Below the pieces are notes generated by a model. The model saw only the letters and a program-made list of their open reading frames with translations, was not told the DNA's origin and ran no database searches. From assembly GCA_050246315.1 (NCBI GenBank), contig JBFWWG010000004.1, forward strand, positions 96,001-160,000: 64,000 nucleotides of DNA. The letters run 5' to 3'. Positions 974-44,180 of the stretch are shown in pieces (the first letter of the stretch is position 1; every line of letters begins with the position of its first letter). Source of the DNA: Nitrospiraceae bacterium. Its GTDB lineage: Bacteria; Nitrospirota; Nitrospiria; Nitrospirales; Nitrospiraceae. Made by a program: the position numbers and the translations under genes.

Positions 974-1032
974 CCGTGCCCCAAGCGGCTCCATGCGCCG
1001 TTTGCACGGTCTTGCCCCTTGGAGGAAAAGAC

Positions 1033-9314: not shown

Positions 9315-9500
9315 GGACCGGCCTCCTTGCTGTGTTAATGAACTTGCTGATCAATCAGGACTGAAAAACCCGGGCGAGACATGTATCGAAGCGTCCACAC
9401 GAGCGATTCCGGCAGTGACGACAGACGTTTGTTGAAGGAGGGTTTTCACCGAAGGGAACTCTATGGTCACTGCAGGCATGCGGACTAGGTTGTGACTAAA

Positions 9501-9555
9501 TTACGATGTCGTAAAAGACCGAGCCCAAGATACTCAAGTTGAAGAAACGTGTCAA
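9501..9555 (-). promoter_or_regulatory. sigma70 promoter TTGACA-N17-TATCTT with downstream palindrome TTACGA-TG-TCGTAA
   Basis: -35 at 9555-9550, -10 at 9532-9527; 14-bp inverted repeat at 9501-9514, just downstream of the predicted start site. Confidence 0.7.
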
Positions 9556-9708
9556 CCCTCAAACTCGCCCTCCAGCCCGATGTGCCGTCGATCCGAATCT
9601 GACTTTGCCATGACCGGTTTGACGCGTTCGGCTCGACCCTAATTCGGCGACGCACGGCACGAGCCCGTGTTTTCTTCATGTACTCCAGTTGTGAGATAAT
9701 GTTCCGAT

Positions 9709-27871: not shown

Positions 27872-28669
27872 TCAGACCTTGACCAGGATGCCGTGGTGCC
27901 CCATAGGAACTCTGGAAAAACGATCGGGAGGCAGCACCGCCGAAGCCGACAATGTCTGCGAACCTGATAGGTGCGAAGGTGGCGCCATCAAGGTGCGGGA
28001 GTAGAGCGCCGCCGCCTGGCTGCGGCGGGAAATATTCAGCTTCTTATACATGCTCACCAGGTAGTTTTTGACCGTCTTGTCGCTGAGCTTCATCTCCCGC
28101 GCAATTTCTTTGTTGGTGAGCCCCTGGGCAACCAGCGGGAGCAACCGCCTCTCCTGAGCCGATAACGGGGTACGTCGCCTTCCTGATTCTCTGGTTTCAC
28201 GGATCATGCCGAACAATGTGCCGGTCAACCGAGGATCGATGATACTGTCGCCTGAAGCAACGATTCGAACTGCGCGGACCAATTCTTCGGATGAGATATT
28301 CTTCAGCAGGCAGCCGTGTATACCGGCCCGCACGATCGCCGCCAAGGTCGCTTCCTCAAACGTAAGGGCAAAAAATAAGATCCTCGTCCCGGGATGGCGG
28401 GTGAGCGTGTCATTGACCTCGTCGAGCAATCCCGGGTGGGACACCGAAATGTCCATAATGACAACATCGGGATGGAGACGAGCGAGTTTGGGGACAGCCT
28501 CCTCCCAAGTAACCGCCTCATCCGACACGACAATGTCCTGATATCGGTCGAACACGCTGCGCATGCCGATCCGTTCAAGTTCCAACGGATCGACGATGAG
28601 GATTTTGACCCGTTTCAGGCCGTCGACATCCCTGTCATCTGCCGGGGCATGGTGAAGACGTGTGCGCAT
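27872..28669 (-). CDS. NarL/LuxR-family response regulator
   Basis: Receiver domain (PDVVIMD, LLKN) plus HTH LSAQERRLL...GLTNKEIA...TVKNY; AAGGAG RBS before ATG 28669. Confidence 0.9.
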   Translation of the reverse strand: MRTRLHHAPADDRDVDGLKRVKILIVDPLELERIGMRSVFDRYQDIVVSDEAVTWEEAVPKLARLHPDVVIMDISVSHPGLLDEVNDTLTRHPGTRILFFALTFEEATLAAIVRAGIHGCLLKNISSEELVRAVRIVASGDSIIDPRLTGTLFGMIRETRESGRRRTPLSAQERRLLPLVAQGLTNKEIAREMKLSDKTVKNYLVSMYKKLNISRRSQAAALYSRTLMAPPSHLSGSQTLSASAVLPPDRFSRVPMGHHGILVKV

Positions 28670-28706
28670 AGGACTCCTTCCTGGTTCCTCAAACTGAGTC
28701 TGCTTA

Positions 28707-28722
28707 AGCATATGTCATGCCA
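28707..28722 (-). promoter_or_regulatory. sigma54 -24/-12 promoter TGGCAT-GACAT-ATGCT
   Basis: GG-N10-GC spacing about 40 nt upstream of ATG 28669; AT-rich, IHF-like TATCAAATTCTTC further upstream (28780-28768). Confidence 0.6.
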
Positions 28723-28950: not shown

Positions 28951-30384
28951 TCACAGCTTGGGTGCCCGCAGTCCCCAACGCTGAAGTTTCATATGGAGCG
29001 CCTTATAATCGATTCTCAGACGACGGGCGGCTTCAGCCTTATTCCACCCGGTCTCTTCCAAGACTTGCATCACCGCGGCGCGCTGCGCCTCCTCCGCCGC
29101 GCAGCGCCCGATTTCAGCGAGCGTGCGATCGCCGATCGGCCGATGATACCCTCGTCCCGTCAGTCGTGCCTCTGATTCGCCCGACGATTCGCCGACCTTG
29201 GCCAGTCCACGGACCGCCGCGGGCAGATGCGGCGGGCGAATGATCCGGTCGGCCAGAATCACTGCGGCCCGGATCGAGTTTTCCAATTCACGGACATTCC
29301 CGGGCCACTGATGGTTTTCCAGCAGTCGTAAGGCATCCGTCGAAATGCCCTGCACTCTCGTCTTGTATGTCCGGTTCGCTTCCATCAGGATCACATGGGC
29401 CAGCAACGGAATGTCCTCTCTCCGCTCACGGAGGGGAGGCACCCGGATCGTCACGGTGTTGAGGCGAAAGTACAGATCTCGCCGGAATGTCCCGTGCTCC
29501 ACCATCTCGTCGAGATTGGCGTTGGTCGCCGCCAGAATCCGGACATCGGCCTGGATGGTGTGCCGTCCGCCAAGACGGTCGAATTCCTTGAATTGCAGCA
29601 CGCGCAGGAACTTGGCTTGAACGGCCAGCGGCAGATTGCCCACTTCGTCAAGCAGCAACGTCCCGCTTTCGGCACGCTCGATCCGCCCGGGCCGCGTCTG
29701 TGTGGCGCCGGTGAAGGCACCGGCTTCATGGCCGAACAACTCCGACTCGACCAGATCCTGCGGAATGGCCCCGCAGTCCAGCGGTAGAAATGGTGCCTGA
29801 CGCCGGGTGCTTAATCCGTGCAGGACCTGCGCAACCAATTCCTTTCCGGTCCCGCTCTCTCCGAGAATCAGTACAGGCACGTCGTATGATGAAACCCGCT
29901 TAACGTGCTCGATCATGTCGAGTATGGCCGGACTCATCCCCACGATGGCGCTCAACGCAGACGGCTTCACCCCGTCGCCCGATAAGGTCGCCACCTCGTG
30001 CGTCAGTTCCTGGAGTCGGAGACAATTCCTGATCGTGATCCCTAGTTTGGGAAGGGTCACCGGTTTGGTGACATAGTCGAATGCGCCAGCCTGCACCGCT
30101 TCTTCGGCGTCCTTTTGACTCACAAATCCGGACAACATGATGACTCGGTAGGGACCCAATTCTGGAAGCAGTTGCGACTTGAGCAAATCAAGGCCCGTCC
30201 CATCGGACAGGCGCATGTCGAGGAGCACCAAGTCCGGATGATCACGGCGGACGATCGCCGCCGCCGCCTGCGCGCTGTTGGCAGTCGCGGGTTCATACCC
30301 TTCTTCCTTGAGATAGCCTTCCAGCATCCCCAGAATAAGAGGATCGTCATCGACAACGAGGACGCGGGCGCCGCTGGTCGGCAT
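28951..30384 (-). CDS. sigma54-dependent response regulator (NtrC/AtoC family)
   Basis: Receiver VVDDD/LLDMRL; GESGTGKE; ESELFGHEAGAFTGA; WPGNVREL; Fis-type HTH. Confidence 0.95.
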   Translation of the reverse strand: MPTSGARVLVVDDDPLILGMLEGYLKEEGYEPATANSAQAAAAIVRRDHPDLVLLDMRLSDGTGLDLLKSQLLPELGPYRVIMLSGFVSQKDAEEAVQAGAFDYVTKPVTLPKLGITIRNCLRLQELTHEVATLSGDGVKPSALSAIVGMSPAILDMIEHVKRVSSYDVPVLILGESGTGKELVAQVLHGLSTRRQAPFLPLDCGAIPQDLVESELFGHEAGAFTGATQTRPGRIERAESGTLLLDEVGNLPLAVQAKFLRVLQFKEFDRLGGRHTIQADVRILAATNANLDEMVEHGTFRRDLYFRLNTVTIRVPPLRERREDIPLLAHVILMEANRTYKTRVQGISTDALRLLENHQWPGNVRELENSIRAAVILADRIIRPPHLPAAVRGLAKVGESSGESEARLTGRGYHRPIGDRTLAEIGRCAAEEAQRAAVMQVLEETGWNKAEAARRLRIDYKALHMKLQRWGLRAPKL

Positions 30385-30387: not shown

Positions 30388-33300
30388 TTACGGCTCCTGC
30401 GGATGCGGGCGCCCACGTTTCCGAACCCGGTCGGTCGTGGACGGATCGGAACAAGACGGACTCGAGTCGGGCATTGCAACCGCGGGCAGCCGGACGGTGA
30501 AGCTGGCACCCTCTCCTGGACGGCTTTCGCAGCCGATCGTGCCGCACAGTTCGGACACGATCCGATAACAAATGGCCAAGCCAAGGCCCGTGCCTTCTCC
30601 GACCGGTTTAGTCGTATAGAACGGATCGAAAATATGCGGGAGATGCTCGGCTGGGATGCCGGTGCCGTTGTCCTGAATACGACAGACCACGACACGGACA
30701 CCCTGGTGCTCTTCTTTCGACAAGCCCACGCGGATCACACCCCTGCAGCCGACCAGATCGATAGCCTGCCGCGCGTTGGTAAGCAGATTAAGCAGGACCT
30801 GCAACATGGATTGGGGATCCGCAGACACCACCGGAAGCTCGGGCTCGAACTCCATCTCTACACGGATCTGACGCGACCGCAGGTCCGTCCGGACCAGGAA
30901 AAGCGCCTGCCGCACGATGCTTTCCAGATTACAAAGCTCCCGGCGCCCGGTTGATGAATGCGCACCGCTCAAGAAATGGTTGACGATGGTCGTCGCGCGC
31001 GCGGCGGCCTCCTGCGCAGCGCCTAATTCCTGGCGCACGGCCTTCACTTGGTTTTTCTCCAGCTTGCGCTCGATCAGATGCAAATGCCCCGTAATCACAA
31101 ACAGCGGGTTATTCAATTCGTGCGCCACACCCGCGACAATGGTTCCCAGTGTGGCCAGGCGATCGGCATGGCGGAGACGTCGCTCCAGCAGCCTCCGTTC
31201 GGTCACATCCGTCAGCAAGCCCAAATACCCGATCGGCTTCCCCTCACTGTCCGTCAGCGCCCGCACCCAACAGGCCAGCTCCAGCACCTTCCCGTCTCGG
31301 CGTTTGCCGACCACATGAATGTCCCTGACCGCCTCCTCCCGTGCCGCCTCCTCCCAGATCGCCCGCGACTCGTTTTCCAAATTGGCAGGCACATAGGGAA
31401 GCGGACGACCGATGACCTCGTGCGCACTCCACCCGAACATCGCTTCCGCCGCCATATTCCAGGATGCCACCTTGCCATCATTGTCCCGCATGATGATCGC
31501 GAGCGGCGAGGCATCCACCAACGTCTGGAGCAACTGGGTCGTCGCCTTGAGCGCCTGCTCCGCCCGCTTCTGCTCGGTGATGTCTCTCGCAATGCCGACC
31601 AGCAACGTCACCGCTCCACGATCGTCCGTGGCTCGCTGTCTGCGATCGTGAATCCAGCGTTCCGTTCCGTCCGGGTTGACGATGCGATATTCCACATCGT
31701 AGGACGGCGATCCCGCCATCCACCGCTCGAAGGCCTGCTGCGCTCGATCCCGATCGACCGGATGGACGGCCGAGAGCCACTGGCGTGGGTCGCGATAATG
31801 TTCCGCCGCGGGACGGCCCCACAGCCGTTCGAACGCATCATTGATATAGACGAGCCGAAGCGGGTTCGGGCTCATGATCCAAAACACATCGTTGACCGTG
31901 TCCGCAAACGTCCGAAACCGCGATTCACTCGCCCGCAGCGCCTGTTCCGCCCGTTGGCGCTCCAGCTCGGCCGCGGCGCGACTGGCAAAAATCGCTAACA
32001 GCGATCGGGCTTCGTCGCGTCGGAGCAGCGGGGCGCATTTCATGACGGCCAGGACTCCGAGAGAGCGGCCCCCACTGTCGTCGAGCGGCGCGCCGATGTA
32101 ACTTTCCACATCGAAGCGCCTGAGCAGGGGATCTGCCGGAAACAGGTCGCGGAGACACTGATCGTATATCTGCACCGACTGCCCGATGACGGTTTCGGAC
32201 GGCGAGCCGGTCAACGGATAATCGAAGTTCGGCAACCGTTGCCCGCGCCCACAGACCGCGATCGTCCGGATCACACCAGGAGCCGATGGATGCGGGGTCG
32301 CGACAAAGGCATACTCGGCGTCCAACGACGTACAGAGATGTTCCACAAGAGAATGGAACAACGCCTCACCCGTAGCGGCTGACACCCCGTTGGCCGCCTG
32401 GAGGAGCCGTTCCTCCGCCCGCTTTCGAGCGGTAATATCGGTCAGGATGCCGTTCCAGACAATGCTCCCATCCGGCCGAGGAATCTCCGGAATGGAATCC
32501 CCTCGGAGCCATTTGATCGAGCCGTCGTCCAATCCTACGCGGAATTCATGGCCCCAGGGAGACAATCCTTCTGCCGACTGTTGGATAGAGACCTGGAGGT
32601 CGCCCAGATCTTCTGACAGCCCAAACCTCCATGCCTCCCGGACATCTCGCATCACCGCTCCCGCCTCGACGCCCAGAATCTCCTTGACGCCCCGGCTCAT
32701 GAAGAGGAACCGATCGGTTCCATCCGGACTCAGTTGATACTGATAGACGGCTCCGGGAATGGCGTCCGTTATCCGCTGGAGCCGCAACTCCGTCTCGCGC
32801 AGCGCCTCCTCCGCCTTTCGGCGCAAGGTAATATCACGCGCGATGCCGAGCACCCCGATGATCGCCCCATTTTTCTGGTAGACCCCTCCCGCACACTCCA
32901 TCGACAACCATTCCCCATCCCGTTTCCGCAGTCGGAGTTCGACCCGATTGTCTCTAACGCCGGATAGGATATCGTCCAAGGACTGGACGGCCAGCGCGCG
33001 GTCGTCCGGATGAACCAACTCGGTGAAGGGCTGCCCAAGCCAGACTTGCCGCGAGCAGCCGGTCCGTGCCTCAAAGGCAGGATTGATGGACAGGATCAGC
33101 CCATCTGGCGACAGCAGGTAGACGATGTCTCTGAGGTTATCGACCAACGAGCGGTACTGGGCTTCGCTGTGTCGCGACGCCTCCTCCGCACGCGCTCGAT
33201 CAGTCAGATCGTGACAAGTACAGATGTATCCGTCGAATTCGCCGGCCTCATTCATCACACTCGACAGCGCTACCTCGACTGGAAACTGCGAGCCGTCCCG

Positions 33301-34707
33301 GCGCTTCCCTGTGATCTCGCCGCGCCATCGCCCCTCCCGTAACAAGAGCGGAAAGATCTTCCGTTCGTAGTCGGCCACCGATTCGGACGGGGTGATATTC
33401 TTCCAGGTCTTGCCGATCAACTCCTCCTGCTCATATCCGTATAGTTCGGCATGCGCGCGGTTAATATACGTATAGATACCGGTTTTGTCTAGCAGTGCCA
33501 TCCCTTCCATGGCGGTGTCAATCGCCCGCCTCATCACCGAATTCGCCTCCTCTACGAGCTTCCGAGAGGTGACGTCCACGGCGGTTCCGACCAGCTTGAC
33601 CGCGCGACCGTTGCCGTCCCGGGTGGTTGAGCCTCGAAGGTGCGTCCAGACGATCGATCCGTCCTTGTGAAGCATCCGCAACAGACATTCATAGTTGTCC
33701 GTCAGCCGATCGATGATCGCGATGGTGGCGTCTGTGGCCAGTCGCCTGTCTTCGGGATGGATGAGGGTGAACCAGTTCAGGTCTCTTTCATCCCATTCTT
33801 CCCGTCCATAGCCGAACAACGCCTTGAAGCTGGGATCTCCCTGGGATCGGCCGGCGAGGAAGTCGTACTCCCAGACCCCGACTCGTCCCGCGACGGCGGC
33901 CCGGGCGTACCGTTCCTCACTCTCACGGAGTAACTGTTCGGTCCGCTTGCGTTCGGTGATGTCCCGTACCGCACTCAGCATGACCGGTTCGCCCCGATAG
34001 CGAAACGGCAACGTCCGGACCTCGACGGGAATGAGGGTGCCGTCTTGACGTTGACCAACGCCTTCCGACTCGAATGCGCGTCCCTCAGCCGACGCGGCCG
34101 CAGCGTGCTCGACGTGAGCATCGGAATCAGCATGGATGATGTGCCGGCATGACAGGCCAAGCAGCTCCTCCCTGGAATACCCGTAGAGTTTCAAGGCTGC
34201 GGGATTGACGTCCAGAATGACTCCTTCATAACTGACCACCAACAGCGCATCCGGCGCGGACTCAAAGAGACACCGGCACCGTTCTTCGCTTTCGCGCAGT
34301 GCCTCTTGGGCGCGCCGCTGCTCGGTGAGCACCTCGGTGTACATGACCAACCCGGCGACCACCCCCTCTTCGCCATACCAGGGCCTGATCTCCCAACGGA
34401 CCCAATCCCGGCTGCCGTCATGGCGAAGGAAGTACTCGCCGTCGGAACCTTCCACGGCGCCGGCGAGGCAACGTTGGTGAATCTCCAGCCACCTCGGCAT
34501 AGACCGGATTTCCGGAAAGACGTCGTAGTGGTGCTCCCCGATGATGCGGCGATCGCCCAACCGATAATCTTCCAACCACCGCCGGCTTGCGGCCAGGTAC
34601 CGCAACTCCGCGTCCAAGATCGCCACGGCCGCCGGAATCTGTTCCATGACCAACAACAGGGCCGCATGCCCGGACGCCGCCAGGTCGAGATTGAGCGGGC
34701 GCATCAT
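30388..34707 (-). CDS. Cytoplasmic multi-PAS/GAF sensor histidine kinase
   Basis: About eight PAS-PAC units ending in D(I/V/L)T-like motifs, one GAF, H-box AHELNNPL, then NLLTNA, DNGTGI, FDPFYTTK and GTGLGL; no TM segment seen. Confidence 0.93.
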   Translation of the reverse strand: MMRPLNLDLAASGHAALLLVMEQIPAAVAILDAELRYLAASRRWLEDYRLGDRRIIGEHHYDVFPEIRSMPRWLEIHQRCLAGAVEGSDGEYFLRHDGSRDWVRWEIRPWYGEEGVVAGLVMYTEVLTEQRRAQEALRESEERCRCLFESAPDALLVVSYEGVILDVNPAALKLYGYSREELLGLSCRHIIHADSDAHVEHAAAASAEGRAFESEGVGQRQDGTLIPVEVRTLPFRYRGEPVMLSAVRDITERKRTEQLLRESEERYARAAVAGRVGVWEYDFLAGRSQGDPSFKALFGYGREEWDERDLNWFTLIHPEDRRLATDATIAIIDRLTDNYECLLRMLHKDGSIVWTHLRGSTTRDGNGRAVKLVGTAVDVTSRKLVEEANSVMRRAIDTAMEGMALLDKTGIYTYINRAHAELYGYEQEELIGKTWKNITPSESVADYERKIFPLLLREGRWRGEITGKRRDGSQFPVEVALSSVMNEAGEFDGYICTCHDLTDRARAEEASRHSEAQYRSLVDNLRDIVYLLSPDGLILSINPAFEARTGCSRQVWLGQPFTELVHPDDRALAVQSLDDILSGVRDNRVELRLRKRDGEWLSMECAGGVYQKNGAIIGVLGIARDITLRRKAEEALRETELRLQRITDAIPGAVYQYQLSPDGTDRFLFMSRGVKEILGVEAGAVMRDVREAWRFGLSEDLGDLQVSIQQSAEGLSPWGHEFRVGLDDGSIKWLRGDSIPEIPRPDGSIVWNGILTDITARKRAEERLLQAANGVSAATGEALFHSLVEHLCTSLDAEYAFVATPHPSAPGVIRTIAVCGRGQRLPNFDYPLTGSPSETVIGQSVQIYDQCLRDLFPADPLLRRFDVESYIGAPLDDSGGRSLGVLAVMKCAPLLRRDEARSLLAIFASRAAAELERQRAEQALRASESRFRTFADTVNDVFWIMSPNPLRLVYINDAFERLWGRPAAEHYRDPRQWLSAVHPVDRDRAQQAFERWMAGSPSYDVEYRIVNPDGTERWIHDRRQRATDDRGAVTLLVGIARDITEQKRAEQALKATTQLLQTLVDASPLAIIMRDNDGKVASWNMAAEAMFGWSAHEVIGRPLPYVPANLENESRAIWEEAAREEAVRDIHVVGKRRDGKVLELACWVRALTDSEGKPIGYLGLLTDVTERRLLERRLRHADRLATLGTIVAGVAHELNNPLFVITGHLHLIERKLEKNQVKAVRQELGAAQEAAARATTIVNHFLSGAHSSTGRRELCNLESIVRQALFLVRTDLRSRQIRVEMEFEPELPVVSADPQSMLQVLLNLLTNARQAIDLVGCRGVIRVGLSKEEHQGVRVVVCRIQDNGTGIPAEHLPHIFDPFYTTKPVGEGTGLGLAICYRIVSELCGTIGCESRPGEGASFTVRLPAVAMPDSSPSCSDPSTTDRVRKRGRPHPQEP

Positions 34708-34883: not shown

Positions 34884-36242
34884 CTAAGAAGACAGGCGTG
34901 GTTGTGTCGTGACCGCGCTCTTGGCCACAGCCGCCGCCATCGAGATACTGAACGCCCCTTCCCAATCCATGTCGGCTGGTACCAGGCGACGTGCCTCCAC
35001 GCTCTCCGTCCGAGACAGCGCCAACACGATGTTCTTGCCACCGAACCCGAAACTGTTGATGAGCGCCCGCTGGATGGCCGCCGGCCGCCCGTGCCCCGGA
35101 ACGTAATCCAAATCGCAATCGGGGTCCGGGTCGGTCAAATTCAGCGTCGGTGGCACAAACTGATGTTCCAATGACAGCACGGTGCTGATCACTTGAAAGG
35201 CGCCGCTCGCGGCAAACGCATGGCCCAAGGCACCCTTGAGGGAACTGACGGGCACCCGGTACGCATGCGCCCCCATTGCCTGCTTGATCGCCTTCGTCTC
35301 GATGGCGTCCAACTCCACGCTGCCGAGTCCACAGGCGTTGACATACTCCACTTCCTCCGGAAACCAGTGGGCGGCCATCAGCGCCCCCTCGATCGCACGC
35401 TGTTGCTCTCCTCCAGACTCCATAGGTTTGGCCATCGAGTGGGCGTCGCAGGTAAAGGCCCACCCTTCGAGCTCGGCATAAATATGTGCGCCTCGGCGGA
35501 CGGCATGCTCGTATTCCTCGAGTACCACGCAGCCGGCTCCCTCGCCCATGACGATGCCCGATCGGGTCCGATCGAATGGACGTGGCAGATTCCGCAACGA
35601 TCCCTGGCAATCCGGAGCCAGGGTCCGACCCGCTTCCATTGCGGACAGGATCGTCGGATGCAGCGGAGCTTCGGCTCCGCCTGCAACGACCAAATCGACG
35701 TTACGGGATCGAATCAGGTCGTAGGCCCGCCCGATGGCGTTCGCCGTTGAGGAACAGCCGATCGAATAGGTTTCGCACTCACCATGGACGCCGAGCGCAA
35801 TGGCCACTTCGGCGGAGACCGCGTTGGGGAAGGTGGCCGTCATGGTGAAGGGATGGAGATGTTGCTTGCGCAACATGCAATCATGCGCGGCGAAGGCTTC
35901 ACGAAGTCCGCCCACGGACGTGCCGAAGCTGATCGCCATACCGGAGCGGTCCTCGGCCTCCAGATCGAGGTCCGCGTCCCGCACGGCCATCAAGGCTGAC
36001 GCGACTGCGAAATGCGACACCCGGCCCATGCGTCTGGCTTGCTTGGGCGGAATGAAGTCCGTGGCATCAAAGTCCCGCACCTCGCCCGCTAAACAGGATT
36101 TGAACGAGGCGGTTTCGAAGGACTCGATCGGCCGGATTCCGGATTCCCCTCGGCAGAGCAAATGCCAAAACGTCCTGAGATCACAACCCAGTGGAGACAC
36201 GACACCCAACCCCGTAATCACAACGCGACGCGATAGGCTCAT
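34884..36242 (-). CDS. FabF-like beta-ketoacyl synthase with non-canonical active site
   Basis: RRVVITGLG, GCSS (catalytic Cys), RPFD...GEGAG, YVNACGLGS (in place of NAHGTST), KGALGH, NSFGFGG. Confidence 0.9.
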   Translation of the reverse strand: MSLSRRVVITGLGVVSPLGCDLRTFWHLLCRGESGIRPIESFETASFKSCLAGEVRDFDATDFIPPKQARRMGRVSHFAVASALMAVRDADLDLEAEDRSGMAISFGTSVGGLREAFAAHDCMLRKQHLHPFTMTATFPNAVSAEVAIALGVHGECETYSIGCSSTANAIGRAYDLIRSRNVDLVVAGGAEAPLHPTILSAMEAGRTLAPDCQGSLRNLPRPFDRTRSGIVMGEGAGCVVLEEYEHAVRRGAHIYAELEGWAFTCDAHSMAKPMESGGEQQRAIEGALMAAHWFPEEVEYVNACGLGSVELDAIETKAIKQAMGAHAYRVPVSSLKGALGHAFAASGAFQVISTVLSLEHQFVPPTLNLTDPDPDCDLDYVPGHGRPAAIQRALINSFGFGGKNIVLALSRTESVEARRLVPADMDWEGAFSISMAAAVAKSAVTTQPRLSS

Positions 36243-36398
36243 GGTTCATCCTCCTCGTGTGAGATCCATCTAAGGAAGGTCTGCTCAATTCAAGAATCTA
36301 GATGGCGACAAGACAAATTCCCTGTGTTTTGTGCACCGACCGATCGAAATCAGTATTTATTCAGGCCTTCCCTAACCGGCAGATTCGTTTGGGCGTCC

Positions 36399-37679
36399 TC
36401 ACCTATGTTCCGTACCGTGCCAGACCGACATATGGTCCCGATGGGTTTCCCCCAACGCGTCCTGGGGATAAAACTTCTCGTAGAATCCAATGTCGACATG
36501 GTGGGCTTGAAACGCAATGACCGTCTTGAATGCATCCACATGAGCCGGGAAACGACCATAGGTACGATACACATACTCACAGAATCGAATCGCCGCTTCG
36601 ACCGCGCGCGCGCTATGCGGCTGGACTTCCTGCTCCTGCTTGCGGGGAATCCACGGCCAGGTGGCGGGATTAGGATAGATCCCGCTGGCGCCGAACTTGG
36701 AGTAGACGAGGTTCCGGACCGACGTCTCCATGGAAGGTACGAACGGCGGGCAGGGACCTTCCCAGATATCGGGGATGCCGACGGGGTTCGATCGGGCCCC
36801 AGGCACCAAGGACGGCGCAAACAGAAATCCAAGACCCGGATAGATTTGCGGTTCCCATCCAAGGAGATGCCGTCCACTCCCGACGCTCTGGATCCCGCCA
36901 CCCAGCCCGATGGCCTGCTCCATGAGGAACATGTTCTGGCACACCGCTCCTTGCTCCTGAAGCGCCGTGTCGCTGATCGCGGCATCGAGATCACGCAGTG
37001 TCATCATCCGCCGCGCGCCTGGGTCATCATGGAGGTATCCGCCTCGACTCTTTCGGAACTCATCCAGGCCGCACCCGGCCTGGCCGTTGTCGGTGTCCAC
37101 AATGAAATAGCCGTATTCCTCGCTGAGCAGTACCAGCAGGAGATTCAAATAGACCCGCGCCACCTCCGTCACGGGCACGATGAACTGCGAGCCCGGGCGG
37201 TTGGCATACCACTGGTTGAATGACAACATGAACGGCAATTGCCTGGGAATGTCCAAGCGGCTTGATTGGAGGCGCACCAGATTCGGACGGGCTCCGCTGT
37301 TCGGATGTGGCACGCCGGCTGCGTAAAATACCCCGTCGTCGTTCGACACAAAGAGCCTCGTCGTATTGGCCGCGCAGGCACTGGGGACGGTGCGTCCTCG
37401 AAACCCCATGATGGCCATGCCTTGCCCATCCTCATGGCCGGGCCGACGGACATACTGCATGTCGGCCAGGTGCGGACCGGTCTCCCCGACTCCGGCAAAG
37501 AGAAGGTAATGCAGCTCTTCAGCCGTCAGTGGGACCGGCTGCATCTCACTCCGATAGCGAAGCGGGCCAGCCGGCAGTTCCATCCCGCACCCAAAACGAC
37601 GGGTCCGTCGTTGCTGGAGCAAATCAACCAACGTTCTGAGTTCGGTGGATTGCGTCGCATGACAAGTCGAGGAAACCAT
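36399..37679 (-). CDS. Nitroreductase/SagB-like flavin-dependent oxidoreductase (putative)
   Basis: LQQRRTRRF (FMN-binding RRSxR-like), PLTAEELHYLL, GRTVPSA, GAVCQNMFLMEQAIGLGG; AAGGAGG RBS before ATG 37679. Confidence 0.65.
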   Translation of the reverse strand: MVSSTCHATQSTELRTLVDLLQQRRTRRFGCGMELPAGPLRYRSEMQPVPLTAEELHYLLFAGVGETGPHLADMQYVRRPGHEDGQGMAIMGFRGRTVPSACAANTTRLFVSNDDGVFYAAGVPHPNSGARPNLVRLQSSRLDIPRQLPFMLSFNQWYANRPGSQFIVPVTEVARVYLNLLLVLLSEEYGYFIVDTDNGQAGCGLDEFRKSRGGYLHDDPGARRMMTLRDLDAAISDTALQEQGAVCQNMFLMEQAIGLGGGIQSVGSGRHLLGWEPQIYPGLGFLFAPSLVPGARSNPVGIPDIWEGPCPPFVPSMETSVRNLVYSKFGASGIYPNPATWPWIPRKQEQEVQPHSARAVEAAIRFCEYVYRTYGRFPAHVDAFKTVIAFQAHHVDIGFYEKFYPQDALGETHRDHMSVWHGTEHR

Positions 37680-37729
37680 GGGTGCGCCTCCTTGGTGCAT
37701 GAGTCTTCTCCGCTCGCGCGGCTGGCGAG

Positions 37730-37777
37730 ACTCTACAAAGATGGTGCTATCGCTGTAACCTACCCACCCGGGTAGGT
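37730..37777 (-). promoter_or_regulatory. lux-box-like palindrome ACCTACCC-accc-GGGTAGGT with downstream -10 TAGAGT
   Basis: 20-bp ACCT-N12-AGGT inverted repeat at 37758-37777, 22 nt upstream of a TAnnnT hexamer (37735-37730). Confidence 0.75.
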
Positions 37778-37913: not shown

Positions 37914-38723
37914 CTAGGACGTCGCTTCTGAATGGCGGTTCGCACGGGCGGCAGGGAGGAGGAGTTCGAGGAGTTCATTGTGCTGGGACCGCCAGTTAGC
38001 GATAGCACTCCAGCGGTTTTCCACCCCCCCCAACTTCTCATAGATGTTCTTGAGGTGAAACTTCACGGTGTTCAGACTCACACTCAATATCACCGAGATT
38101 TCCCAGTTCGTTTTCCCTTCGGCAACCCAACGCATAATCTCCTCTTCGCGCTTGGTCAATTGCGCCTGAGGGGTCTGCGCCGGAGACTGATCCTGAGGGG
38201 TCAACGCGCGGAGATAGGCCAGATGGAAATGGGGGGAGAGGATTTGCATAATCGCACGTAGCTTGGGCATCGTCTTGTGGTCGAAATTGCTGAATGCAAA
38301 ATAGGTGCACGCGCCGAGCACGCCGCGAATCCCGACCGATAGACAGCTTTTGATGCCGAAATCCAGTTTGAGGCTCGTGACCTCTCTGGGCACCTCAATC
38401 GCGGGGGCATCTTCGCTGGTCACAAATCCGAACCGAGTGGTTTGCATCAGTTGGATTGCGGGGTCGCTCAGGAACCCACACGACGCATAGAGGTATGAAA
38501 ACTCATCGCCATAACTCGAATGGCCGATTTGCAATTCGCATTTTCTGACGTTGAATGCCCCACAGGCCGAAAACTCGTGCGGGATGATGGAGCCGACCGC
38601 CGCCGTCAAGGCGGACAGTCGTGACTGGGAATCCACCGATTGCGTCTGATACATGATGTCCCGCAGTTGCTGAAATTCCTTGCGGGATGGGTACGGGAGA
38701 GCCTCGGTGCCTCGAACAATCAC
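37914..38723 (-). CDS. LuxR-family regulator with autoinducer-binding-like domain (LuxR solo)
   Basis: SYGDEFSYLY...LSDPAI...DFGI in the N-terminal domain; HTH LTKREEEIMRWVAEGKTNWEIS...NTVKFHLKNI; no luxI in the window. Confidence 0.88.
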   Translation of the reverse strand: MIVRGTEALPYPSRKEFQQLRDIMYQTQSVDSQSRLSALTAAVGSIIPHEFSACGAFNVRKCELQIGHSSYGDEFSYLYASCGFLSDPAIQLMQTTRFGFVTSEDAPAIEVPREVTSLKLDFGIKSCLSVGIRGVLGACTYFAFSNFDHKTMPKLRAIMQILSPHFHLAYLRALTPQDQSPAQTPQAQLTKREEEIMRWVAEGKTNWEISVILSVSLNTVKFHLKNIYEKLGGVENRWSAIANWRSQHNELLELLLPAARANRHSEATS

Positions 38724-39038: not shown

Positions 39039-39749
39039 TTAGTCGTTCATGACGATCAGCAGTTCGACGCGCCGGTTTTTCGCGCGACCGTCCGGAGTTG
39101 TGTTATTCGTCAGCGGTTTGTACTCGGCGAAGCCGCTTGCGGAGAGACCGCCTGTGGGGACGCCATAAACTTCGCTCAGCGCTCGCACGACCGAGGCCGC
39201 TCTAGCAGTGGACAATTCCCAGTTCGATGGAAATTGAATGCTTTGTATTGGCACATTGTCGGTATGTCCTTGGACCCGCACCTCCTTAGGAGCCTGATCG
39301 ATCAGTACCTCCGCCAGAGCCTCAAGCAACGGCAGCGCCTCCGGGCGCAGCTCGGCCTGTCCGCTCTCGAACATCGTGCTGTCGGCGATGGTGATCAGGA
39401 CGCCTTCATCCGTGTCGGCAATGGCCACATGTTTGGTGAAAAGAACATCGCGGCTGCGGCTGGACAACACCTCCTGGATTTTCCTGACCAGGATCGGTTT
39501 TTGGTGAAGCACCGGCACCAGCGACGACTTGTGCGCGCCCATCTCGAACACCTTGTCAGAGACCGGGGTGCTGACAACTGGTTTCAACGCGGCCTGGATC
39601 GATTCGCTCACCACCCTAAATTTGCCCTCGTTGACGGATGAAACAGAGTACATCACCACGAAGAAAGCGAACAGCAGCGTGATGAAGTCGGCATACGACA
39701 CCAGCCACCGTTCGTGGTTCTCATGCTCTTCGTGCTTACGTTTGGACAT
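39039..39749 (-). CDS. motB: Flagellar motor stator protein B
   Basis: RWLVSYADFITLLFAFFVVMY; OmpA-like GHTD...NWELSTARA...NRRVE. Confidence 0.95.
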   Translation of the reverse strand: MSKRKHEEHENHERWLVSYADFITLLFAFFVVMYSVSSVNEGKFRVVSESIQAALKPVVSTPVSDKVFEMGAHKSSLVPVLHQKPILVRKIQEVLSSRSRDVLFTKHVAIADTDEGVLITIADSTMFESGQAELRPEALPLLEALAEVLIDQAPKEVRVQGHTDNVPIQSIQFPSNWELSTARAASVVRALSEVYGVPTGGLSASGFAEYKPLTNNTTPDGRAKNRRVELLIVMND

Positions 39750-39756
39750 CTGGCTT

Positions 39757-40518
39757 TTATTTTTCGTGGATCTGTCCGCCGCCGATGTATCCGGAGAGTT
39801 TCTCTTCCAATTGACGAGGGTTATCTCCGGATGCGATGCCAACCAGTCCCGAAATCAGCATCATCCGCATCCCCGTTTCCTGCTTGATCTTCAGTTTGAT
39901 CTTGTTGCCCAACGGGAGAAAGAACAAGTTCGCCGCACCCACTCCATACACTGTCGCCACAAAGGCCGTGGCGATTCCGCTCCCAAGCTTGGAAGGATCG
40001 GCCAAATTTTCCATCACGTGAATCAGACCCAATACCGCTCCCAAGATCCCGACGGTGGGCGCATACCCTCCGGCGGCTTCCCACACTTTGGCCGCGGCCG
40101 TCCCCTCTTCCTCATGATGCTCCACTTCCACTTCGAGGATCTCTCGGACCATCTTCGCGTCGGTGCCATCCACGATCAGTTGCAATCCTTTCGCGAAGAA
40201 GGGATCTTTGATGTCCTTGATCTTGCCCTCCAGGGCCAATAACCCCTGCTTCCTGGCCACCTGAGCCAAGTCGACCACTTGCTTCAATTGCCCCTTAGGA
40301 TCGTGCTTGGGATTCAATAGCGCCAGCGACAGGAGCGAGAAGCTCTTCATCACCACGGGAAGGGGATTTTGAACGAAACAGGCGCCGATCGTTCCGCCAA
40401 GTACGATCATAAACGCAGTCAACTGCATGATAGAGCCCACGTGTCCGCCTTCCAGGGCTTGCCCGCCCAGGATGGAGCCTAGGGCTACCACCACGCCGAG
40501 CACGGTCAGAATATCCAT
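39757..40518 (-). CDS. motA: Flagellar motor stator protein A
   Basis: ARKQGLLALE, GLQLIVDG, GGYAPTVGILGAVLGLI, AFVATVYG. Confidence 0.95.
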   Translation of the reverse strand: MDILTVLGVVVALGSILGGQALEGGHVGSIMQLTAFMIVLGGTIGACFVQNPLPVVMKSFSLLSLALLNPKHDPKGQLKQVVDLAQVARKQGLLALEGKIKDIKDPFFAKGLQLIVDGTDAKMVREILEVEVEHHEEEGTAAAKVWEAAGGYAPTVGILGAVLGLIHVMENLADPSKLGSGIATAFVATVYGVGAANLFFLPLGNKIKLKIKQETGMRMMLISGLVGIASGDNPRQLEEKLSGYIGGGQIHEK

Positions 40519-40653
40519 CCCGCTCGCTTTCCCTGACGGGCATCCCGAGCAGGCACGCCAGCCGCAGCATGGTACGATTCCGTTCGACTCAATCCGTCGT
40601 TCGCTCGCATGACTCGGGATCCTGATGAAGACGATGCCGGAGCCGCCTGCACG

Positions 40654-40833
40654 TTATTGCAAGCGCGCAGCCCGATGGACCCATTCGTCGAGATCTCGGC
40701 GTACAAAGCGCCAGTGCTTTCCGATCTTAGATGCGGGAATCTGCCCGAGCCGAGCCAGCTTATAGACGGTGGATTTTGGGACGCGGAGCAAATGCGCAAC
40801 CTCGAGAACGGTGAGGATTTCAATCTGTGCCAT
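40654..40833 (-). CDS. Excisionase-type (HTH_17) DNA-binding protein
   Basis: ILTVLEVAHLLRVPKSTVYKLARLGQIPASKIGKHWRF; GGAG RBS. Confidence 0.85.
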   Translation of the reverse strand: MAQIEILTVLEVAHLLRVPKSTVYKLARLGQIPASKIGKHWRFVRRDLDEWVHRAARLQ

Positions 40834-40894
40834 GACCGTGGCTCCACCTGGCCGTTGATTCATCGGGCGCACACATCCCCTTGCCTGTTGTGTG

Positions 40895-40922
40895 TTATCG
40901 GCCCGAGACCGAGGAAACTTAA
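40895..40922 (-). promoter_or_regulatory. sigma28 promoter TTAA-N16-GCCGATAA
   Basis: Perfect FliA -10 octamer upstream of the HTH gene and motAB. Confidence 0.8.
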
Positions 40923-40973
40923 GACAGGGCTTCTCACCGATCTGGTCCGCCATGCCATCGGGAGCTGCCTGGA

Positions 40974-41579
40974 TCAGGCATGCGACAGGCCAGGCGCGCG
41001 CTGTTCGCCACGCCGCTGTTCAGCCTGGACGTGAAGAATGTGGCGGATGAGGGATTCCTGATGATCGGCACTAATGTCGAGAAACTTTGCCCCGATGAGA
41101 TATTTTTTCTCTTCCGACCCTCTTGATTCAGTCACACGACTGACCTCCGCCACAGCGGCAATCGGAAAGAACGGTGGAAGAATCAGCTTCACCTCAATCT
41201 GGTCGCCTTCGTGGAAGCGTTGGTCGGTCGGGAAACTGATCCCGGTTGCACTGATATTGACCTGCGTCATTTTCGGCAGCGGAAGCCCGCCAGGCACCGT
41301 CTGTGCCAGTGCTCCGACAACCAAGGCCAGCGCCCAATCGATCTTCATGAGCCAGGGAACCAGCAAGGCTTGAGGGTCATCGGGCCTGATTTGATTCAGC
41401 AGACGGTCCGTGGGCGCGGAGATGAAATCATGGATCGCCGTTGCGCTACGGGGGTCCATTCCGATAACGGTGCAAGTAGAAGGCTGTCCAATCGAGCGAT
41501 ACTCCAGTAGTAGCCGATCATCGATGCGCTGCCAACCTCGTCGATCGAATTCCACCGATTCTGTCGTCGGCAATGGCAC
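40974..41579 (-). CDS. PilZ domain protein (c-di-GMP receptor)
   Basis: RRGWQR (RxxxR) and NISATG ((D/N)xSxxG); start placed at the GTG after GGAGG; ORF is open to 41666. Confidence 0.85.
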   Translation of the reverse strand: MPLPTTESVEFDRRGWQRIDDRLLLEYRSIGQPSTCTVIGMDPRSATAIHDFISAPTDRLLNQIRPDDPQALLVPWLMKIDWALALVVGALAQTVPGGLPLPKMTQVNISATGISFPTDQRFHEGDQIEVKLILPPFFPIAAVAEVSRVTESRGSEEKKYLIGAKFLDISADHQESLIRHILHVQAEQRRGEQRAPGLSHA

Positions 41580-41596
41580 GTTCCGGCTTCCTCCAG

Positions 41597-41938
41597 CTAG
41601 CTGAGACGATCGAGTTGCCTCCCCACCGATCGGCCGTCGACCAGGGTCGATGAAAATGATTTCCACCGAGACCGCGCGGCCGCCGCCTCCACCAACAATT
41701 GGTGCAGGGCGGCTTTCGCCACGAGGGCGCGCGCCATAATGGTCTCGTCCATGGCCAGGAGCGCACAGGCCAGGTTCGGCATCACATGGTTATGTTTGAA
41801 CCACGTGCGACGCGCGTCATAACAAGCCGAGACTCGGTCCCAGTCTCCTCGCTCGGCGGCTTCCAGCGCCTCGACTGTGAGACGGCCGATCCCGTCAGTC
41901 CACGCCCCTGGTGTCGGAAAGTTATTCGGTTCGGGCAT
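41597..41938 (-). CDS. FliT-like helical protein
   Basis: Follows fliS; ALEAAERGDWDRV...R pattern. Confidence 0.55.
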   Translation of the reverse strand: MPEPNNFPTPGAWTDGIGRLTVEALEAAERGDWDRVSACYDARRTWFKHNHVMPNLACALLAMDETIMARALVAKAALHQLLVEAAAARSRWKSFSSTLVDGRSVGRQLDRLS

Positions 41939-42314
41939 GAATGGCCGCACCGCTTTCCGCGAGCTTCTGCCAAGCCTCGCGTAAGATGCTCAGGCATCGG
42001 ACCGGGCCATCGAGACGATGGGCCTGATGGTGAAGATTGACGTAAAGCAGCTCCGCCAAGATGTAATCGTACAGACGCCGCAAGGACACCGCAATGTCTT
42101 CGCCCTGCTGCATGTCGAGCACGTCGGACAATTCCGTTACAATGTTGACCGCACGGCTTAGGAACCTGGCCCTGTCGGCTGCTCGATTCCCCCGGATGCT
42201 TTCCTGCGCGAGCAGCATGGCCTGGATTGCTCCGTCGTACAGGACCACGACCACCTGCACGCCGGACGAGGTCATCACATTTGTTTGCTGGTACTGCTGG
42301 ACCGCACTTCGCAT
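41922..42314 (-). CDS. fliS: Flagellin export chaperone
   Basis: YQQTNVMT, LYDGAI, LRRLYDY, LREAW. Confidence 0.93.
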   Translation of the reverse strand: MRSAVQQYQQTNVMTSSGVQVVVVLYDGAIQAMLLAQESIRGNRAADRARFLSRAVNIVTELSDVLDMQQGEDIAVSLRRLYDYILAELLYVNLHHQAHRLDGPVRCLSILREAWQKLAESGAAIHARTE

Positions 42315-42329
42315 GACACCTCTTTACGA

Positions 42330-43721
42330 TCAGGAGATTCGCGTGCGCAAGAAGTCGGCTTGAGACTGGAGCTGGCGGAGCAAGCCGTCCAAGTTGGCAT
42401 ATTGGAGCCGCAGTCGCGCCTCATAGGCCGCCACCTCGTCTTCCTTCCGCTGGATACTGTCGGCCATTTTCTCGATTTCTTGAGTCAGGCTGTTCTTGCG
42501 GGAGGACACCACACCAGTTTCCAATTCGTCCAGCCGGTCGACGGCCTCCGTGACACGCTGGGCAATTCCGGTCACGGTCGACTGCCGAATAAACAACGCG
42601 CGAGCGGCTGAGTAGTCGGTGCTGAGTGCTTGGGACAGCCTAGCTTCATCGAGTGTGAGGGTGCCGTCGCGTTCCGTCTTGAACCCCACCTGACCCGCGC
42701 TGGTATAAGTGGACAGTCCTGGCACTTCTCCGGAGATAGCCTGTCGAAGCGCAGAGAGCGTGGTCCGGACCGCCGATTCCCCCGTCAAAATTCCCGCCTT
42801 CGCGGTCGCCGGATCGAAGGTCGCCCGCTCATGAATGAATTTCACCACGTCGTTGTAGGCAGCGACCAGTTTCTTGATGTTGTCCTTCACCGTTGCGGTA
42901 TCGAGGCTGACGGTCACGTTGACCGAGTCCGTTCCGACTGTCACCTGCTTGAGGTTGAGCGTCACGCCCGGGATGACATCCGTGACGGTGTTCCCGCTCC
43001 GTTGGATAGTCAATTGCGTTTGGGCAGGATCCCCGATGACGAGGATCGCATCCTGCGCGACTTGAAGCGTGTCCGCCCCCCCCGTACCGGACGTGTTGGC
43101 CAGGTCCAAGGCGGTGCCGTCGGCCGTGATGGAAATCGTGTTGGCGGCTCCCGTACTGGTTCCCGTCAGCACCAGCCGATAGGCGGGTGCCTGTGCTGTT
43201 CCGGAGTTCACTATGGACGCGGTGACGCCAGCGCCCAGGTCGTTGATGGCTGTACGCAAGTCCTCCAGCGTGCCACTATCCCCCAAAGTTACCGTCTGCT
43301 CCGCCCCGGTTCCCACGCGGAAGGACACCACGGCCGACGTCCCGGCCACGATGTCCGCTGTGGAACTCGCAACCGCTTTGGCCGCCTTGTTGGTTATTTG
43401 ATGAGCGGTGGCGAGTTGGGTAACCTGCACCCGGTAGTTGCCCTGGACCGCCGTAGAGGAAGAGGAAAGAGAGAGGACTTCCTCGTCGCTGACGGTTGCG
43501 CTCGTGCGATCAAATGAACTCGCGAGTCTCAAGGCATCCGCAGCCCCTTGGACTGCCAGCAGCTTGGCGCCGAGTGAACCTAGATCGGCCAGTTTTGATT
43601 GCAATACTGTCTTCTTTTCGTTCAGCTTATCGATCGGCAAGCGCTGGATCTTCACCAGCTCGGTCACAACCTGGCCGAAGTCGATGCCGTTGCCCAGACC
43701 TCCGAAACTGACAGTCGCCAT
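42330..43721 (-). CDS. fliD: Flagellar filament cap protein
   Basis: FGGLGNGID, VTQLATAH, VIPGVTLNL, YEARLRLQYANLD. Confidence 0.93.
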   Translation of the reverse strand: MATVSFGGLGNGIDFGQVVTELVKIQRLPIDKLNEKKTVLQSKLADLGSLGAKLLAVQGAADALRLASSFDRTSATVSDEEVLSLSSSSTAVQGNYRVQVTQLATAHQITNKAAKAVASSTADIVAGTSAVVSFRVGTGAEQTVTLGDSGTLEDLRTAINDLGAGVTASIVNSGTAQAPAYRLVLTGTSTGAANTISITADGTALDLANTSGTGGADTLQVAQDAILVIGDPAQTQLTIQRSGNTVTDVIPGVTLNLKQVTVGTDSVNVTVSLDTATVKDNIKKLVAAYNDVVKFIHERATFDPATAKAGILTGESAVRTTLSALRQAISGEVPGLSTYTSAGQVGFKTERDGTLTLDEARLSQALSTDYSAARALFIRQSTVTGIAQRVTEAVDRLDELETGVVSSRKNSLTQEIEKMADSIQRKEDEVAAYEARLRLQYANLDGLLRQLQSQADFLRTRIS

Positions 43722-43747
43722 CCTAGGCCTCCACCCCTGCCGAATTA

Positions 43748-44101
43748 CTAGATACGCTCGTCAACGAGCTGTCCGGGATTGCCTTGCAAGAACTTCGCAA
43801 CACGGAGCACTTCTTCCGGAGGAATCTGTTGAACGATATCACCTGACTTTTCGTTCAACACCTTCACAACCAATCGATGTAGCTCCGGATCGACTTCATA
43901 ACGAAGGAGGGAATCATTGGACGAGGACACCTGCTCCATGCTCGCCCTGCCTCGGATCGGTCCATCTCGACCGCCGACACCGGTTTCCTCCTCCACCACA
44001 TGACGGAACGAAGCGGGGCGCGCCTGAGAACGAATCTGCCCGGTCTCCACAGTTCCGCCGGCCGTCATCGGCCCACTTGAGTTGGCCACCTCCGGAATCA
44101 T
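43748..44101 (-). CDS. flaG: FlaG family protein
   Basis: LRYEVD...LVVKVLNEKSGDIVQQIPPEE; located between fliC and fliD. Confidence 0.88.
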   Translation of the reverse strand: MIPEVANSSGPMTAGGTVETGQIRSQARPASFRHVVEEETGVGGRDGPIRGRASMEQVSSSNDSLLRYEVDPELHRLVVKVLNEKSGDIVQQIPPEEVLRVAKFLQGNPGQLVDERI

Positions 44102-44132
44102 AGGCACCTCCCTGAGCAGCTCCTCCTACCCG

Positions 44133-44160
44133 TTCCTCCCCCGGCGAACCGAGGGAGGAA
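44133..44160 (-). terminator. GC-rich UUCG hairpin 3' of flagellin (terminator or stabiliser)
   Basis: CTCCCTCGG-TTCG-CCGGGGGGAG on the minus strand; no U-tract. Confidence 0.45.
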
Positions 44161-44180
44161 GAGTGGAGCGAGTTACCCGG

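Follow-up and report, generated by a model that had tools for sequence, protein, structure and literature searches.

Within a stretch of 64,000 nucleotides from the genome of a Nitrospiraceae bacterium (assembly GCA_050246315.1, contig JBFWWG010000004.1, positions 96,001 to 160,000 of the forward strand; this whole stretch is termed the window and all its coordinates are counted from its first letter) a gene on the minus strand encodes a FabF-like ketosynthase (KS), in which the Cys-His-His triad of these enzymes is replaced by Cys163, Cys304 and His341. The enzyme as such is well known, but its active site is altered here in a new and conserved way, and it is encoded in a previously undescribed cassette, composed of a solo LuxR-type receptor, a lux-box-like palindrome and a two-gene operon, in which the KS gene follows a gene for a protein with nitroreductase fold. 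A literature search found no description of a free-standing β-ketoacyl-acyl carrier protein synthase II (KAS II) with a Cys-Cys-His site or of this clade. Our tentative reading, which we hold with less than even confidence, is that the cassette forms a LuxR-solo circuit, in which the KS and a flavoprotein would make an acyl-derived molecule other than an N-acyl homoserine lactone (AHL) by non-decarboxylative chemistry. On this reading the KS may serve the making of a chemical signal and not of membrane lipids. A preliminary description of the KS gene mentioned neither its location on the minus strand nor the nitroreductase-fold partner, the LuxR receptor and the lux box. Partner, receptor and lux box together shift the reading from an odd enzyme to a candidate signalling or specialised-metabolite circuit.

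Active Site of the Ketosynthase

The KS gene has a GAGGAGG Shine-Dalgarno sequence 7 nt ahead of its ATG, and both halves of the KS domain are recognized by Pfam over a protein of full length (PF00109, 144 bits; PF02801, 113.5 bits), with a C-terminal tail of approximately 40 residues past the KS domain. The protein has the same fold and length as FabF/KAS II enzymes and is 40–48% identical to solved or representative FabFs. HMMER comparisons with solved FabF structures resulted in E-values of 8e-98 (1e5m) and 7e-93 (4ls5), ranging to 1e-80, and residues 5–411 of the KS pair with residues 7–414 of 1e5m. The FabH model NF005703 scores 15.4 bits at a cut-off of 304, showing that the protein is of the KAS II and not of the KAS III type, and the Thiolase_N model remains below its cut-off as well (18.2 bits; cut-off 26.4).

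The catalytic motifs are distributed over the KS as expected for a FabF, with the exception of the first histidine. The motif GCSS comprises residues 162–165 (codon of Cys163: 35754..35756), KGALGH residues 336–341 with Lys336 and His341 (codon of His341: 35220..35222), and the loop GFGG(K) including Phe400 is intact at residues 399–402. At residues 302–308 the KS reads NACGLGS (codon of Cys304: 35331..35333). In the HMMER alignments to 1e5m and 4ls5 the KS sequence "yvnaCglgs" is placed opposite "yinaHgtst" of FabF, and in the alignment with the FabF encoded in the same genome NAHGTST stands opposite NACGLGS, i.e., the Cys-His-His triad of FabF is not present and its first His is Cys304 in the KS. 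The preliminary description had reported GCSS and KGALGH as kept and NACGLGS in place of NAHGTST, and the Cys-Cys-His observation is confirmed by these alignments.

The decarboxylative enolate attack is described to be catalysed by the two histidines of the KS triad together, with the backbone of Cys and Phe making up the oxyanion hole (PMC9006962). Moreover, two threonines, Thr300 and Thr302, were reported to form hydrogen bonds to the phosphopantetheine arm in KSs generally (bioRxiv 10.64898/2026.05.19.726425). In the KS clade described below, the residue two positions past the lost His, the phosphopantetheine-binding Thr305, is replaced by Leu or Ile in 119 of 121 proteins, and the stretch DAYH(I/M)T of canonical FabF reads DA(Y/H)SM(A/V)(R/K), with His268 replaced by Ser in 118/121 and Thr270 by a hydrophobic residue in 120/121. 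The exchange of Thr305 to Leu and of DAYH(I/M)T to DA(Y/H)SM(A/V) in the KS fits a loss of the malonyl-decarboxylation site; these pocket changes do not say which alternative chemistry the KS has.

Conservation and Phylogeny

Conservation was analysed in a set of 121 proteins, the query KS and 120 homologues, the close ones of which bear the names Nitrospira or Nitrospiraceae. The column of Cys304 contains Cys in 118 of these proteins, the exceptions being a truncated or frameshifted protein (P0109), an unrelated protein of 682 aa (P0121) and P0119, which has a Ser. Conservation of NACG had been set beforehand as a check, with orthologues carrying His as the outcome speaking against a genuine feature, and it is Cys that the orthologues carry. 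Among 66 genomic copies the Cys304 codon is TGC in 58 and TGT in 8, and the use of both codons indicates that the residue is held by selection. Cys304 is neither a chance substitution nor a sequencing error, and contigs from RNA libraries (see below) agree with the gene in every letter. The remaining sites are similarly conserved: Cys163 in 120, Lys336 in 118, His341 in 119 and Phe400 in 117 of the 121 proteins. A protein of 401 aa (P0273) was considered as a His-bearing orthologue and rejected, as its resemblance to the clade ends near residue 245. Unrelated sequence follows, which contains the His motif in canonical form and does not end like a KS. The protein is probably the result of a chimeric assembly or of gene decay, and it does not count against the conservation of Cys304.

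In a tree of 51 KS sequences, obtained by a quick maximum-likelihood search, the Cys-Cys-His proteins form one clade (SH-aLRT 100), which is separate from the genome's own fabF and from its second KS; the KS phylogeny proposed in the preliminary description thus sets the protein apart from the FabF of its own genome. The clade includes a small betaproteobacterial subclade, one member of which is named Sulfurirhabdus autotrophica. For the genomic neighbourhood of the betaproteobacterial members, a metagenome scan with P0117 yielded no relative, a scan with an alignment retrieved two ordinary FabF genes only (39% identical, NAHGTST), and a scan of genome contigs had no betaproteobacterial members among its matches. 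The loop variant GFGGKN is shared with KSs outside the Cys-Cys-His clade. Fusions of the KS to its partner or to another domain were not found in the clade, neither among 52 representatives of less than 1000 aa nor without length limit, and the KS fusions of about 780 aa seen among the representatives have the canonical His. The nearest KSs outside the clade keep the Cys and show odd triads, with Phe and Gln at the two His positions in P0247 and P0304 and Tyr and Tyr in P0278 and P0302; P0313 also belongs to these KSs with non-canonical triads, and some proteins of this group have N-terminal extensions of 160–330 aa.

Relation to Housekeeping Fatty Acid Synthesis

The genome assembly has a size of 4.39 Mb, is 100% complete and encodes three KSs. 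The canonical fabF (NAHGTST) is located in a fabD-fabG-acpP-fabF-rnc cluster on another contig (C16). The third KS (451 aa, INAHATST; 646..2349 of locus L002) is encoded on contig C3 with its own acyl carrier protein (ACP) directly downstream, and this ACP-KS pair lies outside the fab cluster and adjoins a permease-like membrane protein. Apart from these two ACPs, on C16 and C3, the genome has no PP-binding (ACP) match, in agreement with the preliminary description, according to which neither an ACP gene nor other fab genes are present near the KS.

The KS does not reach the cut-off of the fabF equivalog model TIGR03150 (417.9 bits; cut-off 493.75) and passes the looser subfamily model NF005589 (414 bits; cut-off 387). 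Among 300 other genomes of the phylum, orthologues of the KS (E ≤1e-193, 67–75% identical) were detected in 13, all of the same family: 10/10 genomes of one genus and 2/26 and 1/6 genomes of two other genera. Within its own family the KS is thereby present in 13 of the 50 other genomes sampled. The remaining matches in the 300 genomes are at the level of fabF (42–44% identical).

As a summary, the KS shares with FabF/KAS II the Cys nucleophile, the Lys, the second His, the GFGG/Phe400 loop and the Asp/Glu of the D-x-x-E stretch, and it differs in the first His, in Thr305, in DAYH(I/M)T and in its score below the equivalog level. Its gene is found outside the fab cluster without ACP context, is linked to luxR and is patchily distributed. 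The separate canonical fabF, the equivalog score, the patchy distribution, the LuxR-associated operon and the fixed exchange of His to Cys make it very likely that the KS is not a housekeeping elongase, as had been proposed from the gene alone.

The Conserved Cassette

The KS is the second gene of a two-gene operon behind the nitroreductase-fold gene (426/433 aa), and the conserved order of the cassette is LuxR-type receptor, nitroreductase-fold gene, KS. It was analysed in 67 clade loci from a collection of species-representative genomes (L numbers denote individual loci). Of the 60 loci in which the sequence extends far enough, 58 have the nitroreductase-fold gene immediately upstream of the KS; in the other two the KS is truncated (L102) or the locus is fragmented (L103). 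In L102 (7513..8675), which derives from one metagenome-assembled genome, a fragment of LuxR directly adjoins what is left of the KS (residues 222–446). The 5′ half of the KS gene is gone together with the nitroreductase-fold gene, suggesting a deletion of the cassette core. A LuxR orthologue lies upstream in 51/52 loci, adjacent in 33 and more than 700 nt apart in 18. The latter cases correspond to the 19 clade loci of one Nitrospira group, in which a cytochrome P450 gene (PF00067) is inserted divergently between LuxR and the nitroreductase-fold gene. In the N. moscoviensis locus (L049) this P450 is encoded at 4926..6545 on the minus strand (PF00067, 298 bits).

A second locus set from a genome search, which overlaps in part with the 67 loci and is not independent of them, shows the same cassette in 13/13 loci. 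Moreover, the 13 genomes with a KS orthologue are the same 13 of the 300 sampled that encode an orthologue of the partner (E ≤1e-166), and none encodes one of the two alone. A second KS gene adjacent to the KS is absent in the 13 loci as well as in the 67 clade loci.

In the spacer between the two genes of the operon no terminator-like site was found, and scans for promoters and terminators yielded sites no more numerous than in shuffled sequences. Over the KS gene or the operon, contigs assembled from RNA libraries of three studies (four runs) agree with the window in every letter, and two of them bridge the spacer (X1 record 3, 35524–37698; X4 record 20, 36064–36879), which is consistent with co-transcription of the nitroreductase-fold gene and the KS. 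The depth of the RNA contigs varies between genes and they end near 37698–37714; they were not used to derive expression levels or a transcription start.

The Nitroreductase-Fold Partner

Translation of the partner more likely starts at the second ATG at 37679 (426 aa), as it is preceded by an AAGGAGG site and as the homologues and the Atlas record begin there. The AlphaFold2 model of the partner (pLDDT 84.6) shows a nitroreductase fold with large insertions. Using VIA-align it matches 8cqs_A, a Bacteroides FMN nitroreductase (Z 15.2, root mean square deviation 2.5, 176 residues aligned), followed by the azoline oxidases BmdC, ThcOx and McbC, the cyclodipeptide oxidase AlbA and the enone reductase CLA-ER with Z 11–13.6. 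In total 51 chains reach Z ≥8, nearly all of the nitroreductase family, and Foldseek agrees (E 5e-5). The closest structural matches of the partner thus include aromatising or dehydrogenating tailoring enzymes, and the model suggests that the partner is probably a flavin-dependent oxidoreductase.

By sequence, the partner has no match in NCBIfam, the best hit of a PDB profile search has an E-value of 0.49, and an Atlas search retrieved its own cluster and clusters having no common family or 16% PF00881. A complex prediction for KS and partner scored 0.00 and is uninformative either way. Distant paralogues of the partner, 31–43% identical, are encoded in a few genomes in unrelated contexts (L038 2652..6788; L037; L040), one of them adjoining a bacterial globin, a SAM methyltransferase and a radical-SAM DUF3641 protein and another one a molybdopterin oxidoreductase and an HbpS-like protein.

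The LuxR Receptor and the Operator

The receptor of the cassette has a GerE helix-turn-helix domain (67.6 bits), and its AlphaFold2 model (pLDDT 81.6) matches full-length CviR, SdiA, RhlR, LasR, QscR and TraR. Compared with structures containing the ligand-binding domain only, TM values of 0.65–0.71 were obtained. At the AHL-sensor motif the cassette LuxRs read F/H/L-Y-D-P-T/S, i.e., both Trp are replaced in all aligned sequences, whereas luxI-linked Nitrospira LuxRs, including those of the same genomes, read W-Y-D-P-W at these positions. A substituted WYDPWG motif is described as a mark of non-AHL sensors (PMC4414361). No LuxI was found in the complete genome, neither with PF00765 nor with the LuxI of N. 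moscoviensis, and the same family search recovers the N. moscoviensis LuxI as a positive control.

The palindrome between LuxR and the operon is positioned 57–76 nt ahead of the first ATG of the nitroreductase-fold gene. Among 60 upstream regions of orthologous loci, 57 contain its arms with at most one mismatch (no mismatch in 28, one in 29) and the other 3 with five, its 4-nt centre is variable among the orthologous loci, and none of 1200 shuffled upstream regions came within two mismatches. The palindrome is the sole match in the window at ≤3 mismatches and the sole site in its genome at ≤1 mismatch. It similarly occurs once in each of five further genomes including N. moscoviensis and N. 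defluvii, ahead of this operon (6/6 in total). It has the ACCT-N12-AGGT frame of the lux box of Nitrospira NspR1, which is reported as experimentally verified (PMC8553950). These sequence features suggest that the operon is probably controlled by the adjacent LuxR through the palindrome.

Features of the Window

The coordinates of the cassette and of the regulatory genes in its neighbourhood are given in Table 1. An orthologue of the NarL-type response regulator is found directly after the KS in many other Nitrospiraceae; here the two genes are separated by the histidine kinase and the sigma-54 response regulator, and the NarL-type regulator is a candidate member of the system. Upstream of the cassette lies a motility block (39039..45008), which encodes MotB and a PilZ-domain protein, both checked with Pfam. 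Judged by its translation, the open reading frame next to MotB is probably MotA, and two further ones resemble a flagellar cap protein and flagellin.

Table 1. Positions of the cassette components and of neighbouring regulatory genes in the window.
Feature	Position	Strand	Basis or remark
NarL-type response regulator (receiver and GerE domains)	27872..28711	minus	Pfam
Sigma-54 response regulator	28951..30384		downstream of the cassette
PAS/GAF histidine kinase, 1439 aa, multi-PAS/GAF	30388..34707		downstream of the cassette
FabF-like ketosynthase (KS), 452 aa, Cys163/Cys304/His341	34884..36242	minus	open reading frame from ATG to TGA; Pfam
Spacer between nitroreductase-fold gene and KS, 156 nt	36243..36398	minus	GAGGAGG ribosome-binding site
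Nitroreductase-fold protein, no named family	36399..37700	minus	433 aa from the first ATG
Lux-box-like palindrome, 20 bp, ACCTACCC-N4-GGGTAGGT	37758..37777		between LuxR and the operon
Quorum-sensing-type LuxR, solo (ligand-binding domain and GerE helix-turn-helix)	37914..38723	minus	Pfam; AlphaFold2

Proposed Mechanism

In part of the Nitrospiraceae the LuxI-less LuxR, the unique lux-box-like operator and the two-gene operon would form a circuit with the KS as its catalytic core. The KS is proposed to load an acyl chain onto Cys163, most likely from an acyl-ACP of fatty acid synthesis, as the nucleophile, the GFGG/Phe400 oxyanion hole, His341 and Lys336 are all kept. The second half-reaction would not be an ordinary C2 elongation, since the apparatus for malonyl-ACP is rebuilt (His303 to Cys, Thr305 to Leu and DAYH(I/M)T to DA(Y/H)SM(A/V)). 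Moreover, the loss of the His in HGTGT is described to mark non-elongating KS0 domains (PMC4661987), and loss of this His in HGTGT/NAHGTST is taken to abolish decarboxylative condensation and to allow transacylation (PMC4661987; PMC6855096). As condensation is described to need both histidines (PMC9006962) and loss of the His to define KS0 (PMC4661987), we infer that the KS forms an acyl-enzyme without malonyl extension. On this sequence basis we lean towards a non-decarboxylative chemistry of the KS, which may act as a transacylase, as an amide or ester synthase or in a non-decarboxylative condensation.

The KS shares with the KS0 domains of trans-AT and algal type I polyketide synthases the kept Cys and the lost motif His. 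However, KS0 domains sit inside megasynthases and pass chains to a downstream ACP, whereas the KS is a stand-alone protein of 452 aa with no carrier nearby, and the replacement in KS0 is simply "not His", whereas it is strictly Cys in the KS clade. This constancy, unlike the plain loss of His in KS0, suggests that the thiol at position 304 has a job. Thiolases, which have the same superfamily fold and two active-site cysteines, provide a model for Cys304, although the KS by sequence is not a thiolase. In their Cys-His-Cys sites one Cys is acylated and the second Cys acts as the base, making the enolate without decarboxylation; this second Cys belongs to another loop, close to where KSs have their GFGG loop. 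The acyl-enzyme of the KS might be resolved similarly by a non-decarboxylative Claisen-type condensation with Cys304 as base, or by transfer to another nucleophile.

The flavoprotein would then oxidise or dehydrogenate the product, on which in some lineages the P450 would also act. The product may be the ligand of the adjacent LuxR, which would bind the palindrome and drive the operon, resulting in an autoinduction loop analogous to PpyS/PluR and DarABC/PauR of Photorhabdus. In these systems a LuxR with substituted WYDPWG is described together with a ketosynthase-like synthase instead of LuxI (PMC4414361). The cassette shares with them the substituted-motif LuxR, the KS and the lack of LuxI in its own genome. 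Unlike the Photorhabdus pairs, it contains a FabF/KAS II-like KS with a second active-site Cys and a partner with nitroreductase fold, and it is found in nitrifiers of another phylum. The PpyS and Dar synthases are FabH/KAS III-like, and in DarABC an oxidoreductase works alongside the KS. By this analogy it is conceivable, though we regard it with some doubt, that the product of the KS is the own ligand of the adjacent LuxR. In a more specific version, which we consider unlikely, Nitrospira including the LuxI-less lineages would use non-AHL quorum sensing: the KS with its second catalytic Cys would be the synthase and catalyse a thiolase-like head-to-head condensation of two acyl chains, the flavoenzyme would dehydrogenate or aromatise the product, and the Trp-less LuxR would sense it and act through the single lux box.

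Several observations weigh against this circuit. The evidence comes nearly all from one bacterial family, which means that the counts are from kin and not independent, and the divergent clade member P0119 (52% identical) has Ser at the position of Cys304, showing that the thiol is not indispensable everywhere. The KS might still decarboxylate malonyl with His341 alone. The cassette encodes no ACP, CoA ligase or thioesterase for substrate supply and product release. The match of the partner to PF00881 is below the cut-off (17.6 bits; cut-off 23.5) and its FMN binding is predicted. Similarly, the Autoind_bind match of the LuxR is marginal (24.3 bits; cut-off 23), and in the cassette LuxR orthologue of N. 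moscoviensis no Autoind_bind match was found at E 0.01. Binding of LuxR to the palindrome is suggested by position, symmetry and uniqueness of the site only. The RNA contigs show neither a strand nor a single transcript, and they might be due to carry-over of DNA. Finally, a canonical luxI/luxR pair is found beside the cassette, at varying positions, in five of the 67 loci (L049, L060, L068, L086 and L102); in N. moscoviensis (L049) it extends over 9394..11233 with a strong autoinducer-binding LuxR and a PF00765 LuxI. The cassette could on this basis be an output or accessory of AHL signalling and not a synthase.

Alternative Explanations

In the most probable of the alternatives, which we nevertheless consider rather unlikely, the operon is such a signalling output: the LuxR would sense an exogenous or AHL-type signal, coming from neighbours or from the luxI present in some Nitrospira, and would switch on the enzyme pair, which would make a secondary metabolite or a modified lipid or would modify or inactivate acyl signals. 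Besides the luxI and second luxR genes beside the cassette in these five loci, this is supported by the frame that the palindrome shares with the NspR1 box (PMC8553950), by the retained Tyr, Asp and Pro of the AHL-sensor motif, and by the discussion of LuxR solos in LuxI-less lineage I Nitrospira as possible eavesdroppers (PMC12342949). However, both Trp of the motif are lost in all aligned cassette LuxRs whereas the luxI-linked ones retain them, the single-copy operator in 6/6 genomes has the layout of a dedicated synthase with autoinduction and not of a global regulon, and the cassette is retained where LuxI was not found.

An ordinary elongating KAS II paralogue, in which Cys304 is tolerated and malonyl-ACP is condensed, e.g., for a special chain length, would account for the strong full-length match to FabF (1e5m and NF005589, see above) and for the retention of Cys163, Lys336, His341 and Phe400. 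This is improbable, as the decarboxylative step is described to need both histidines (PMC9006962) and loss of the His to be the mark of KS0 (PMC4661987), as neighbouring pocket residues are altered too, as the fabF equivalog cut-off is missed in a locus that has no ACP or fab context, and as the patchy distribution is tied to the flavoprotein and the LuxR.

Furthermore, Cys163, Cys304 and His341 could constitute a redox site, i.e., a disulfide switch, or a Cys2His metal site and support redox-gated or Lewis-acid chemistry in place of a classical acyl-enzyme mechanism. In the active sites of KSs the three triad positions come together, and an active-site disulfide switch was reported for some thiolases. 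The three residues are strictly conserved together and Cys-Cys-His is a common set of zinc ligands, e.g., in LanC. We consider this quite improbable: the Cys side chain is shorter than that of His, which makes the geometry uncertain, P0119 has a Ser at position 304, and the conservation of the oxyanion hole and of Lys336 fits a retained thioester chemistry.

Least probable of all is an impaired, chain-length-factor-like subunit pairing with the housekeeping FabF or the ACP-linked KS of contig C3: altered-triad FabF homologues, with His replaced by Cys in some species (amxFabFmut), are described as chain-length-factor-like in anammox bacteria (bioRxiv 10.64898/2026.05.19.726425) and the nearest relatives outside the clade have non-canonical triads (Phe/Gln; Tyr/Tyr) as well. 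However, proteins of the chain-length-factor type lack the nucleophilic Cys, and the amxFabFmut genes stand beside an active KS partner, whereas the KS clade keeps this Cys in 120/121 proteins together with the Lys, the second His and the oxyanion loop, no locus contains an adjacent KS gene, and the conserved neighbour is not a KS.

Significance

A free-standing KAS II with strictly conserved Cys-Cys-His would represent an active-site solution new to the thiolase superfamily and would offer a natural test of the role of the first histidine. In wastewater plants, soils and waters, Nitrospira predominate among the nitrite oxidisers and comammox organisms. In a comparative study of 2025 many lineage I Nitrospira genomes are described to encode LuxR homologues and no LuxI, with the sensed signal being unclear (PMC12342949). 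The cassette offers a concrete and testable answer to this question in the form of a receptor with one operator and a candidate synthase of two genes, and its parts can be expressed heterologously without growing Nitrospira.

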